Part shown: piece after piece, positions 1 to 2,562 of the stretch
Position numbering within the stretch: position 1 is the stretch's first letter
Layout of the letters: each line of letters begins with the position of its first letter
DNA from: Escherichia coli
Lineage (GTDB): Bacteria; Pseudomonadota; Gammaproteobacteria; Enterobacterales; Enterobacteriaceae
Reading direction: 5' to 3' (one strand)
Assembly: GCF_003334385.1 (NCBI RefSeq)
Contig: NZ_QOWN01000087.1
Length of the DNA: 4,288 nucleotides
Made by a program: the position numbers and the translations under genes
Notes under the pieces: model-generated
Databases searched by the model: none
The model's input: the letters and a program-made list of their open reading frames with translations, nothing else
Told to the model about the DNA's origin: nothing

Positions 1-195
1 GAGCATCTTCGCGCACTGGAGAAAAAAGGCGTCATCACGATAAAGCGTGGCGTGGCCCGGGGGATAACGCTTCATACTGCGATGAAGGACGACGACAGCG
101 AGGCGGTCGGGATTATCCGCGCACTGCTTGCCGGTGAGGAAAACGCAAGGCTGCGTGCAACCCACTGGTTACATGAGAGGGGCCTGAAAGTATGA
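1..195 (+). CDS. 3'-terminal fragment of a CDS that starts upstream of the window; encoded C-terminus carries a LexA-like winged-helix DNA-binding motif
   Basis: Frame 1 is open from base 1 to TGA at 193-195. Translation ...EHLRALEKKGVITIKRGVARGITLHTAMKDDDSEAVGIIRALLAGEENARLRATHWLHERGLKV resembles the LexA N-terminal wHTH (LexA has ...[24 protein letters not shown]...). Its stop overlaps the next start as ATGA (192-195), suggesting translational coupling. Family assignment is by eye only. Confidence 0.5.
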   Translation, partial: EHLRALEKKGVITIKRGVARGITLHTAMKDDDSEAVGIIRALLAGEENARLRATHWLHERGLKV

Positions 196-587
196 AGCTA
201 ATACTGCCTTTTCCGCCCAGCGTGAACACGTACTGGCGACACCCCAACAAAGGGGCGTTTGCTGGTAAGAGCCTGATAAGCGCGGCGGGGCGAAAATTCC
301 AGAGCGCGGCGTGTGCAGCAATAGTTGAGCAGTTACGTCGTCTGCCGAAACCAACGTCGGCACCTGCTTCAGTGGAGATCGTGTTGTTTCCTCCGGATAA
401 CCGGATCCGCGATCTGGACAACTATAACAAGGCGCTGTTTGACGCCCTGACCCACGCGGGTGTGTGGGAAGACGACAGTCAGGTGAAAAGAATGCTGGTG
501 GAGTGGGGACCGGTTATCCCGGAGGGGAAGGTCGAGATCACTATCAGTAAGTACGAAAAAGCGAGTTGCAAATTAGCAACTCGGTAA
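192..587 (+). CDS. rusA: Crossover junction endodeoxyribonuclease RusA (Holliday junction resolvase), lambdoid-prophage type
   Basis: 131-aa ORF from ATG 192 to TAA 585-587. Conserved RusA blocks: LILPFPPSVNTYWRH (compare E. coli RusA ITLPWPPSNNRYYRH), acidic catalytic block RDLDNYNKALFDALTHAGVWEDDSQV (compare [27 protein letters not shown]), and C-terminal EGKVEITISKY (compare GGRLELTITEM). Confidence 0.88.
   Translation: MKLILPFPPSVNTYWRHPNKGAFAGKSLISAAGRKFQSAACAAIVEQLRRLPKPTSAPASVEIVLFPPDNRIRDLDNYNKALFDALTHAGVWEDDSQVKRMLVEWGPVIPEGKVEITISKYEKASCKLATR
494..501 (+). other. Chi octamer 5'-GCTGGTGG-3' (RecBCD recombination hotspot sequence), inside rusA
   Basis: Exact octamer read directly at 494-501 (codons atg ctg gtg gag tgg). 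Functional activity is inferred. Confidence 0.6.
562..583. other. Perfect 8-bp stem / 6-nt loop hairpin at the 3' end of rusA; on the minus strand it is followed by C+T5 (terminator-like for leftward transcription)
   Basis: cgagttgc (562-569), loop aaatta (570-575), gcaactcg (576-583); all 8 pairs are Watson-Crick. The + strand has no downstream T-tract. The - strand has TTTTT (complement of A556-A560) right after the stem. Confidence 0.35.
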
Positions 588-632
588 CGGAATTGAGCAA
601 CACCCTAAATTTGGGTATTACCTCGTTAAAGA

Positions 633-652
633 TACTGTATTTATGAACAGTG
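633..652. promoter_or_regulatory. Candidate LexA (SOS) box upstream of the KilA-N/antirepressor-like gene
   Basis: TACTGTATTTATGAACAGTG matches the E. coli LexA box consensus TACTGTATATATATACAGTA at 16 of 20 positions, with the invariant CTG (635-637) and CAG (648-650) at the correct spacing. It lies in the AT-rich rusA/kilA-N gap, about 100 bp upstream of ATG 750. Confidence 0.55.
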
Positions 653-657
653 TATCC

Positions 658-686
658 TTGATAACTATTAAAAATCGCAGTAAGTT
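658..686 (+). promoter_or_regulatory. Candidate sigma70 promoter for the KilA-N gene (-35 TTGATA 658-663, 17-bp spacer, -10 TAAGTT 681-686)
   Basis: Hexamers read by eye immediately downstream of the LexA box. The -10 is a weak match. Alternative: -35 TTGGGT 611-616 with -10 TACTGT 633-638 overlapping the box. No experimental support. Confidence 0.25.
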
Positions 687-749
687 CATCCTGCATCAAC
701 GAAAAGGGAGTGCAGTCCCGCTCGTGGATAAAAATTTGTGGAGAAACCA

Positions 750-1565
750 ATGAATCAGTTGCTTGTAATTGATGGCGTTTCTGTGCGCCAGTACTTCGAA
801 TCTAACTACTGTCTTAACGACCTTCAGAAAGCTGCTCTTCTTGCCGCTGGTGAGAATCGCTCCTCCCGTTCGCTGGAAGTTCACGAGTTTATGCGTCGTC
901 CTGAAACGAAGGCTCTTGTGGAATTATTGGAAGAAGAAACTACGGGAGATTCCCGTAGTATTCCTGTCATCACCATTCAGGGGCGCAATGGTGGGACGTA
1001 TGTCTGTAAAGAGCTGGTCTATGCATATGCAATGTGGATCAGCCCGGCATTCAGCTTAAAAGTGATACGTACTTTTGATGCGCTTCATAATTCATCACCA
1101 GAAGAAACCACATCCGACAAAATTAAATCCGGGGTCATTCTGCTTGAATCAGCAGCAAAGACTCTAAATCTGTCAAACTCCTCGAAACTTGGTGCATACC
1201 AGAAATTATCAAAGGTAGCTGGTCTTCCTGAACTTATGCCGATCTATGCCATTGATGCACCTGCTGATGCGCCAGATGGTTCAAGCCGCCCTACGCTGTC
1301 GCTGAGTGCACTGCTGAAGCAGTATGGTATCCGCCTGACGGCTAATCAGGCATATCACCAGATGGCGAAGCTGGGGATCGTTGAACAACGCGAACGATAC
1401 AGCCGTACCGCGATTAACAACATCAAAAAATTCTGGTCGCTGACAGCGAAAGGCTGCATGTTCGGCAAGAACATCACCAGTCCTGCAAATCCGCGCGAGA
1501 CGCAGCCGCATTTCTTCGAATCCCGATTCCCTGAGCTGTTAAAGCTGCTCGATACCGTTCATTGA
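750..1565 (+). CDS. KilA-N domain protein with antirepressor-like C-terminal region (Roi/Ant-like phage DNA-binding protein)
   Basis: ORF to TGA 1563-1565. ATG 750 is preceded by GGAG (740-743) with a 6-nt spacer. The ORF track extends to GTG 738, which overlaps the SD and is less likely. The N-terminal half (NQLLVIDGVSVRQ...GTYVCKELVYAYAMWISPAFSLKVIRTFD) looks like a KilA-N fold. GC is about 50%, like the flanking nin genes. Confidence 0.7.
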   Translation: MNQLLVIDGVSVRQYFESNYCLNDLQKAALLAAGENRSSRSLEVHEFMRRPETKALVELLEEETTGDSRSIPVITIQGRNGGTYVCKELVYAYAMWISPAFSLKVIRTFDALHNSSPEETTSDKIKSGVILLESAAKTLNLSNSSKLGAYQKLSKVAGLPELMPIYAIDAPADAPDGSSRPTLSLSALLKQYGIRLTANQAYHQMAKLGIVEQRERYSRTAINNIKKFWSLTAKGCMFGKNITSPANPRETQPHFFESRFPELLKLLDTVH

Positions 1566-1566
1566 G

Positions 1567-2562
1567 GTGACCGTGAGAGCACTACTGACCCCTGAAATTG
1601 CCCCGCGTATGGGGATCGTATTGTTCAGGCCAGGTTCAGAGCTGATGCCCCTGTTTATGCAGGGGCGTGTCCTGCTGGAGCCTGAGCCGGAACGTTATTC
1701 ATCTTTTGCCAGTGGTGCCGTTCCGGCATCATCACAACCGCTGGCGGATGATCCTGCCGTTCGGGCCGTGTTCCGCCATGAGGCGGTGATCCGTCGTGCT
1801 GGTGGCGTGGAATGCCTTGAGAGCTGGTTACTTCGTGAAAAGGGCTGTCAGTGGCCTCATTCCGACTGGCACAGCGAGAACATGACCACAATGCGGCACG
1901 CGCCAGGCGCAATCCGTCTGTGCTGGCACTGTGACAATCTTCTCCGTGACCAGTTCACGGAACGGCTGGAAGCAATGGCAACGGATAACTGTGCCCGCTG
2001 GGTGTTATCTGTTGTGCGCCGTGATCTTGGTTTTGATGACAGTCACGTTGTGACAATGCCGGAACTGTGCTGGTGGCTGATTCGTAATGACCTGGCGGAT
2101 GCCTTACCGGAAAGTGCAGCCCGTAAGGCACTGAGATTACCGAAGCCTGTTGTGCCGTCTGTCACCCGGGAAAGTGACCTTGTGCCTTCGGTTCCTGCCA
2201 CCAGCATCATCCAGGATAAGGCGAAAAAGGTGCTGGCGCTGAAAGTGGATCCGGAGTCGCCGGAGTCTTTTATGTTACGCCCAAAACGTCGCCGCTGGGT
2301 TAATGAAAAGTACACGCGCTGGGTTAAGACACAGCCGTGTGCATGTTGTGGAAAGCCTGCTGATGATCCCCACCACCTGATAGGCCACGGTCAGGGTGGT
2401 ATGGGGACAAAAGCGCATGACCTTTTTGTGTTGCCGTTGTGCAGAAAACACCATGACAAACTGCATGCGGATACCGTGGCATTTGAAGAGAAGTATGGTT
2501 CCCAACTGGAGCTGATATTTCGTTTTATCGATCGCGCGCTGGCGATTGGTGTGCTGTCCTGA
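1567..2562 (+). CDS. DUF968-like prophage protein with C-terminal Cys/His cluster (putative HNH/zinc-binding nuclease-like domain)
   Basis: Long ORF ending TGA 2560-2562. Start is uncertain: GTG 1567 (1 nt after the upstream stop), GTG 1573 (GAGG 1564-1567 as SD, 5-nt spacer) or ATG 1609. C-terminal motif [23 protein letters not shown]...[11 protein letters not shown] is typical of DUF968 proteins found between nin genes and Q in enterobacterial prophages. Recognition by eye. Confidence 0.7.
1798..1805 (+). other. Chi octamer 5'-GCTGGTGG-3'
   Basis: Exact octamer at 1798-1805 (cgt gct ggt ggc gtg) inside the DUF968-like gene. Confidence 0.6.
2069..2076 (+). other. Chi octamer 5'-GCTGGTGG-3'
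   Basis: Exact octamer at 2069-2076 (ctg tgc tgg tgg ctg) inside the DUF968-like gene. Confidence 0.6.
2198..2205 (-). other. Chi octamer on the minus strand (+ strand reads CCACCAGC)
   Basis: Exact reverse complement of GCTGGTGG at 2198-2205. It is the only one of the six in this orientation. Confidence 0.6.

Follow-up and report, generated by a model that had tools for sequence, protein, structure and literature searches.

LexA-controlled transcription within a prophage nin region (between the replication genes and Q) has been shown experimentally for the dinI-gfoA unit of the Gifsy prophages, where palindromes precede the LexA box (PMC3121763). The same paper cites tum of coliphage 186 and antC of N15 as LexA-controlled antirepressor genes. 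In Gifsy-1 an internal start site is located 1.6 kilobases (kb) upstream of antQ, in an operon that ends in Q (PMC4825925). Here we analyze a stretch of 4,288 nucleotides (nt) from Escherichia coli (contig NZ_QOWN01000087.1), hereafter the window, in which the Holliday junction resolvase gene rusA and a gene for a KilA-N domain protein are separated by a gap of 162 nt that contains a LexA box. The KilA-N gene is followed by a DUF968 gene and by a gene for a Q-family antiterminator. On balance the evidence tips modestly towards a nin-to-Q operon in which an exchangeable gap cassette supplies a LexA-boxed internal promoter and a hairpin in front of KilA-N, DUF968 and Q.

In annotated relatives the same row of genes sits between the replication and lysis genes, which identifies the window as the part of a lambda-like prophage's rightward early operon that runs from nin to Q; the prophage is of the SfIV / PhiR49_1 type. 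Carriers of the row include Shigella phage SfIV, Escherichia phage PhiR49_1, Stx2 phages and, in E. coli, many prophages. Upstream of it the relatives carry cI and cro (~4 kb away in PhiR49_1), replication genes and a Dam-type methylase gene, and downstream of it the lysis genes.

The nearest known counterparts are the Gifsy dinI-gfoA and gftA units, in which, as here, the LexA box is found in the nin region, downstream of the replication genes, upstream of Q and after a palindrome. In both cases the box heads a unit outside the immunity region, and in Gifsy-1 the genes from the box to Q are tightly packed too (gaps of 5, 2, -4 and -4 nt). Differences are nonetheless evident. The Gifsy-1 box overlaps the -10 element and the start and has true U-tract terminators before it, whereas the box in the window lies upstream of the -35 element and its palindrome has no U-tract. 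The first Gifsy gene is of the GfoA type; here it encodes a KilA-N protein of 271 amino acids (aa) without similarity to GfoA. Also, the Gifsy repressors are not cleaved, whereas the CI protein of PhiR49_1 is of the S24-cleavable type.

With the Gifsy-1 antQ operon the window would share an internal nin-region promoter leading into Q, the predicted start being ~1.9 kb upstream of Q. However, the antQ promoter responds to AnrP and is not reported to be LexA-controlled, and the genes involved are ninG and ylcG instead of KilA-N and DUF968. As for tum and antC, a single LexA-repressed promoter would tie a prophage gene to the host SOS response, but those are dedicated antirepressor units that go with non-cleavable repressors and do not lie upstream of Q. 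The general layout recalls the lambda pR operon, in which small same-strand genes overlap or nearly abut and lead to Q, which turns on the late genes. Lambda relies on N antitermination through the terminators of its nin region, and we know of no LexA box or internal promoter there. Our literature search found no paper on this KilA-N/DUF968/LexA locus. Taken as a whole it has an ordinary operon layout and can plausibly be read as a variation on a known theme, with a plausible sub-operon that feeds Q and resembles the LexA-controlled nin locus of Gifsy.

LexA box and predicted promoter in the rusA/KilA-N gap

The gap spans positions 588-749 on the + strand (~40% G+C), from the rusA stop codon (TAA, 585-587) to the KilA-N start codon (ATG, 750). 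A sequence-only reading made earlier had claimed a gap of this size with a regulatory site in it, and both claims are correct. The site is a LexA (SOS) box, TACTGTATTTATGAACAGTG, at 633-652. Its CTGT-N8-ACAG core is perfect (8/8) and it agrees with the 20-nt consensus at 16/20 positions; the pattern TACTGT-N8-ACAGT is expected by chance 0.07 times per window. Among all variants seen only the final position of the box differs, being G or A.

A distance of 5 nt separates the box from the downstream -35 element of a predicted sigma-70 promoter on the + strand, which consists of TTGATA (658-663), a spacer of 17 nt and TAAGTT (681-686), with a predicted start at ~693. According to an approximate weight matrix this site (658-686) is the top-scoring + strand site of the window. 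The matrix is home-made, with approximate base frequencies, and is flagged as the weaker evidence. Stronger support for the promoter comes from the comparative alignment: relatives without the box have aligned hexamers (TTGAAA-17-TAATGT in an E. coli allele with an 85-nt gap, TTGCAG-17-TAGTGT in Phytobacter) while their spacers have diverged. Relative to the predicted start the box spans ~-61 to -42, without overlapping the -10 element or the start. Two candidate promoters that do overlap the box (AAGATA-18-TATCCT and TTGGGT-16-TACTGT) were rejected, as they score 3.3-3.4 against 11.6.

In the proposed mechanism, host LexA bound to the box would keep the internal promoter off in a lysogen. Upon DNA damage LexA would be cleaved, the promoter would transcribe KilA-N and DUF968, and the transcript would continue into Q. 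It would get there because no terminator intervenes: between 750 and 2580 (KilA-N to Q) no terminator-like site above shuffle expectation was found. Release of LexA would then act as a second SOS input beside cleavage of an S24-type CI repressor. It would not be the sole induction route, since the CI of PhiR49_1, a phage with an identical cassette, has a Peptidase_S24 domain (5e-26). If so, SOS would act on late-gene activation twice, through cleavage of CI and through LexA leaving the sub-operon of Q, and this could alter induction thresholds and lysis timing. Among pathogenic E. coli and Shigella, prophages with this row of genes are widespread. Stx2 phages share the row as well, and the one examined carries a box-less allele.

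A more far-reaching version makes Q a direct member of the host SOS regulon, with LexA cleavage alone firing KilA-N, DUF968 and Q independent of CI; separately, it takes the hairpin downstream of the promoter, with its (G/U/A)UGCAG loop, for an undescribed cis-regulatory RNA. We consider this version improbable.

During lytic growth transcription from the early promoter would also run on into KilA-N, DUF968 and Q, given that the hairpin at the end of rusA lacks a U-tract. This hairpin, CGAGTTGC-AAATTA-GCAACTCG, is a perfect stem of 8 base pairs (bp) at 562-583 on the + strand, folds with -13.5 kcal/mol (z = -3.7) and is matched by 0/200 shuffles. It was rejected as an intrinsic terminator: a U-tract is absent on the + strand and a T-run is found on the opposite strand only. 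Early transcription should therefore pass it.

The box could also be explained in a different manner, in which LexA at 633-652 is a roadblock to polymerase from the early promoter, no internal promoter is needed, and Q is reached only after LexA cleavage. Polymerase from the early promoter does have to cross the box on its way from rusA to the Q-proximal genes, and the rusA-end hairpin would let transcription through to it. The conserved promoter-like hexamers in the relatives are then left unexplained, however, and in induced cells LexA is already cleaved when the early promoter fires, so that a roadblock adds little. Also, LexA is to our knowledge not known as an efficient roadblock to elongation. 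This mechanism is very unlikely.

Several observations weigh against an internal promoter under LexA control. A stricter consensus promoter scan of the window listed no site in the gap; it missed the predicted one because TAAGTT matches TATAAT at only 3/6 positions, and this weak -10 element is itself a drawback. Furthermore, the box lies upstream of the predicted -35 element, unlike those of recA and Gifsy dinI, where the -10 element or the start is covered. Box-less relatives (loci L042, L043, L044 and L090) keep the promoter with only the right half-site left. Since such close relatives retain the promoter although their box is incomplete, the promoter unit does not come with LexA control as an intrinsic part. 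Constitutive transcription into Q should be damaging to a lysogen, which hints at a promoter that is weak, activator-dependent or checked by the hairpin downstream of it; because an unregulated promoter into Q should be harmful, something else, perhaps this hairpin, must limit expression. An antirepressor is not needed for induction, because CI already senses SOS. Finally, the copies of the cassette are near-identical, so that its conservation is mostly due to shared descent and not to independent selection.

The sequence-only reading had KilA-N heading a separately regulated sub-operon. The gap, the LexA box and the best promoter-like site speak for this part of it, whereas the position of the box off the core promoter and the box-less relatives speak against it, and it stands in qualified form.

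Two further observations concern LexA-like sequences elsewhere. A segment at 2958-2981, just past the Q stop, is 71% identical to the LexA-box region, with which it shares ATGAACAGT; it has the right half-site only. Perfect-core LexA boxes (for example CACTGTAAATTTAAACAGTA) are found 2.5-3.9 kb downstream of the KilA-N start in prophages of Rosenbergiella (L105, position 6451), Providencia (L108, 5960) and Lonsdalea (L116, 7390), where they may mark further SOS-controlled units near the late region.

A stem-loop downstream of the predicted promoter

The predicted 5' untranslated region (5'-UTR) of the KilA-N transcript contains a stem-loop at 695-729 on the + strand, supported by folding, by covariation and by a covariance-model match (695-731). 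Its inner stem is formed by GGGA (706-709) and TCCC (716-719) around the loop GTGCAG (710-715), and an outer stem pairs ~699-702 with 722-725. An alignment of 16 lineages shows that the TGCAG part of the loop is invariant whereas all 4 stem pairs change on both sides. In these lineages 82.8% of the pairing cells are filled by pairs, compared to 51% in shuffles, of which 0/500 reach this level, and no more than 53% when the partners are slid; the helix is also predicted by RNAalifold. A mild selection bias comes from the choice of the TGCAG site closest to the ATG in lineages with several such sites.

The association with KilA-N is also seen in the counts: of the 22 TGCAG sites in the 110 nt before KilA-N, 9 have a 6-nt loop closed by a stem of 4 bp or more, compared to 2.4% among 1506 background sites. 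Some other TGCAG hairpins have loops of 7 or 8 nt. In 375 kb the covariance model gave strong matches only at hairpins upstream of KilA-N, though these sites are its own training set. Searching Rfam 15 gave no match to the hairpin at 695-729 (no match at E <=1 anywhere in 1-4241). The hairpin occurs likewise at L042 2949-2985, L090 3449-3485, L113 3406-3442, L114 3449-3485 and others, and the distance from the -10 element to the TGCAG loop is 23-28 nt in eight lineages. Alleles with a 19-nt gap also have it, within the 3' coding end of rusA (GGCGG-GTGCAG-CCGCC). As a consequence of this location it would be present in transcripts from the early promoter too. Proteus and Morganella carry a hairpin whose loop differs.

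Because the loop is invariant while the stem covaries, the pattern points to an RNA that is recognized via its loop and is conserved from Escherichia to Gilliamella. It might serve in stabilization or processing, or be bound by a regulator. The hairpin could be bound by a phage or host factor that gates the operon, which would explain why box-less relatives tolerate a promoter upstream of Q. A role as minus-strand terminator was rejected, as U-runs follow in some lineages only (judged by eye). The promoter-plus-hairpin unit, which recurs in several genera of the Enterobacterales, is a testable candidate for a new nin-region regulatory RNA element. Together with the LexA-domain protein encoded at the start of the window, the TGCAG hairpin is the most interesting loose end of the locus.

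Exchange and recurrence of the gap

The 162-nt gap appears to be a genuine exchangeable mosaic regulatory cassette, of a known kind and with new gene content. It begins in the last ~15 nt of rusA and extends into the N-terminal KilA-N domain. Compared to the allele of Stx2a_1447, which has a 19-nt gap, the sequence is identical until the last ~15 nt of rusA and then fully diverged, both between the two genes and in the part that encodes the N-terminal KilA-N domain. Identity stops just upstream of the rusA-end hairpin, which is thus the first element of the cassette. An alignment of alleles shows the same tendency in the protein, with a variable N-terminal KilA-N domain and a conserved C-terminal half.

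Among 80 viral contigs, all those with this KilA-N allele (35/35) have the LexA box and a gap of 151 or 162 nt, whereas none of those with other alleles (0/45) has the box, their gaps being 19, 70 or 85 nt. The gap sequence is present in 186 of 5426 complete E. coli genomes, including a prophage of O104:H4 C227-11, where no stx gene is annotated in the stretch examined. It is also found in 5 phage records, which represent 2-3 distinct phages (PhiR49_1 and its _star variant, SfIV and VIT_AJPSC).

One open reading frame (ORF) in the gap was considered as a leader peptide: it encodes 36 aa (643-753) and ends in an ATGA overlap with the KilA-N start. It was rejected, since its ATG lies inside the LexA box, upstream of all predicted starts. 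Moreover, a common 11-nt deletion shifts its frame and fuses it to KilA-N (L007 2905-3816), and the Prokaryotic Genome Annotation Pipeline (PGAP) makes no call here. The ORF is probably non-coding.

A scan of species-representative genomes yielded 80 loci. Synteny of RusA, KilA-N, DUF968 and Q is seen in Phytobacter, Rahnella, Pantoea, Proteus, Edwardsiella, Erwinia, Serratia and Lonsdalea; in Morganella and Gilliamella synteny is partial and rusA is not directly upstream. Across genera the rusA/KilA-N spacing is bimodal, either 16-19 nt or 98-162 nt. The other junctions stay short, with -4, -1, 7, 10 or 11 nt between KilA-N and DUF968 and -8 to 39 nt between DUF968 and Q.

In the long-gap lineages a promoter-like site is found before KilA-N. 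No other + strand site of the locus scores higher in Erwinia persicina, Erwinia rhapontici and the E. coli 85-nt allele; the homologous site ranks second in Gilliamella and sixth in Serratia marcescens. This recurrence supports the view that many phages transcribe KilA-N as the first gene of a separate unit, whether or not LexA is involved.

LexA-like palindromes with a 7/8 core are present in the gaps of Edwardsiella, Serratia sp. M24T3 and Erwinia rhapontici. With a background of 0.033 such sites per kb only ~0.05 would be expected in the gaps, so they are strongly enriched. As judged by eye, the palindromes overlap the predicted -10 element in Serratia sp. M24T3 and Erwinia rhapontici, and in Edwardsiella a TAGAAT follows the site. 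Erwinia persicina, Rahnella and the E. coli 85-nt allele have degenerate or half LexA sites only. Given that LexA-like sites occur in some lineages and are degenerate in others, SOS control of the KilA-N promoter looks evolutionarily labile, as if gained and lost more than once.

It might be argued that the gap is a mere recombination joint, in which palindrome and hexamers regulate nothing and KilA-N, DUF968 and Q depend for their expression on early read-through alone. The cassette is essentially one clone spread by recombination, the 19-nt-gap alleles work without box or promoter, the consensus scan listed no gap site, and the box is outside the core promoter. A perfect-core box with 16/20 matches is, however, expected only 0.07 times per window and adjoins the best promoter-like site. 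Moreover, distant genera likewise have gaps of ~100-160 nt in which a promoter-like site and a hairpin keep a fixed spacing, and it is in those gaps that LexA-like sites are strongly enriched. We regard a functionless joint as unlikely, and a regulatory cassette with a LexA-boxed promoter remains the reading we lean to.

Gene junctions, encoded proteins and flanking features

The other junctions of the row are tight, as the sequence-only reading had noted. The LexA-like gene and rusA overlap as ATGA at 192-195 (stop TGA 193-195, rusA ATG 192-194; read directly from the sequence), and 17 nt separate DUF968 (stop TGA 2560-2562) from Q (ATG 2580). For DUF968 that reading had offered two starts behind the KilA-N stop (TGA 1563-1565), GTG at 1567 and GTG at 1573. 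Both codons are present and only the second holds as the start, which gives a gap of 7 nt. Among the viral-contig alleles listed, GTG 1573 is kept in all relatives in which DUF968 comes next; GAGG (1564-1567) is 5 nt upstream of it, and PGAP annotates the equivalent of 1573. GTG 1567 was rejected, as it is GTA in the diverged alleles L042, L043 and L044 and has no Shine-Dalgarno sequence. The rusA/KilA-N gap is the single break in a compact same-strand row, in agreement with the earlier statement that the row is broken only at the SOS module.

The spacings of -4, 7 and 17 nt would suit a translationally coupled operon, and the same spacings are seen in relatives. The term tight translational coupling was nonetheless an overstatement, since it was derived from spacing alone and such spacing is the operon default. 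Of 57 junctions of the same operon in six annotated relatives, 31 are overlaps (22 by 4 nt) and 16 measure 0-20 nt; 6 exceed 100 nt, five of which are rusA/KilA-N. For SfIV, rusA coordinates and the 1573-type DUF968 start were added to this tally by homology. The tight junctions are ordinary packing of compact phage operons and not distinctive of this locus. Each of the four starts has its own Shine-Dalgarno sequence: GAGAGGGG before 192, GGAG at 740-743, GAGG at 1564-1567 and GGAG at 2569-2572. Coupling is for these reasons a possibility only: ribosomes may re-initiate across the overlaps, and independent initiation is equally possible. Co-transcription of the genes is very likely, because the tight KilA-N/DUF968/Q spacings hold across genera, from Escherichia to Gilliamella.

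The 12-mer TTTGTGGAGAAA occurs at 735-746 and 2564-2575, the ribosome-binding regions of KilA-N and Q. It was rejected as a repeat element, because by our own estimate chance alone would give ~0.5 exact repeats of 12 nt in 4.3 kb; it is treated as a shared Shine-Dalgarno context. In most genera KilA-N has GTGGAG as its Shine-Dalgarno sequence. The cassette is in some cases (L007, L032 and L037) accompanied by an extra gene of 171 aa between KilA-N and DUF968 (for example L007 3832-4347), with 15 nt at one of its junctions and ~9 nt at the other. The sub-operon thus takes insertions without losing its tight packing.

The row begins in the window with the 3' end of the LexA-like gene (1-195, + strand), the product of which is a phage protein of 108 aa. 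It matches phrog_362 (transcriptional repressor, 6e-30), shows a weak TIGR00498 lexA match below cut-off and is named 'LexA family protein' by PGAP. In a full-length homologue (L003 5869-6195) residues 2-70 align with the DNA-binding domain of E. coli LexA (PDB 1LEA) at E=6e-16. An 'AGE' motif aligns with the LexA cleavage site; the S24 catalytic domain is absent. The protein keeps the residues RS.NAA.EHL, of which RS.NAA.EH are presumably the recognition-helix residues that contact CTGT in the LexA-DNA structure. It could be an uncleavable LexA mimic.

These properties bring in a further reading of the box, as the operator of the phage's own LexA-domain protein instead of or alongside host LexA. 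Expressed from the early operon, the 108-aa protein would bind the box and possibly host SOS boxes, and so shut the promoter or damp SOS during lytic growth. The retained recognition helix agrees with such a role, and a LexA-like gene is present in the same neighborhood in several genera (two genes upstream of KilA-N here). In Edwardsiella (L100, L101) it is located between KilA-N and DUF968, downstream of the LexA-like site. However, the protein is equally present in many prophages with a 19-nt gap and no box, so its role cannot depend on the box. Tight binding by LexA needs dimerization, and a search of the literature on LexA-like nin-region proteins found nothing. We give this reading a small chance only and retain host LexA as the preferred ligand of the box.

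The remaining genes of the row are on the + strand as well. RusA (192-587) is assigned by phrog_34 (6e-58), the ORF table and the PGAP name. The KilA-N protein (271 aa, 750-1565) matches phrog_129 (4e-109) and Pfam KilA-N (PF04383, 2.1e-15) over residues 10-114; no solved structure was found for it. As a GfoA homologue it was rejected after comparison with Gifsy-1 STM2621.1n (73 aa, E=18), which was taken as GfoA from its position beside dinI. Homology to AnrP was rejected too, the only match being a marginal local one of 15 residues (E=0.008 in a single comparison) without full-length homology. The DUF968 / HNH-type protein (GTG start, 1573-2562) aligns with phrog_96 from residue 1 (1e-175) and matches Pfam DUF968 (PF06147, 9.9e-81, residues 160-326) as well as HNHc_6 (4e-5). 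The late-gene antiterminator (2580-2972) matches phrog_79 ('anti-termination protein Q-like', 3e-47), is called 'antiterminator Q family protein' by PGAP and has holin and lysozyme genes downstream in relatives. A search for defence systems gave weak, domain-level PADLOC hits only.

Downstream of Q the + strand contains an ORF of 205 aa with low G+C (~36%) at 3039-3656, which has a weak phrog_8498 match and is named 'WYL domain-containing protein' by PGAP. It is followed by a strong hairpin with a U-tract (3743-3767). Positioned between Q and this hairpin, the WYL-like ORF looks like an accessory gene inserted in the interval from Q to the late promoter. A small conserved ORF lies at 3890-4087 on the same strand. 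Downstream of it, at 4242-4288, there is a partial match to the Rfam small RNA STnc100, cut by the window end (30.2 bits, E=7e-4, model positions 1-47 of 206).

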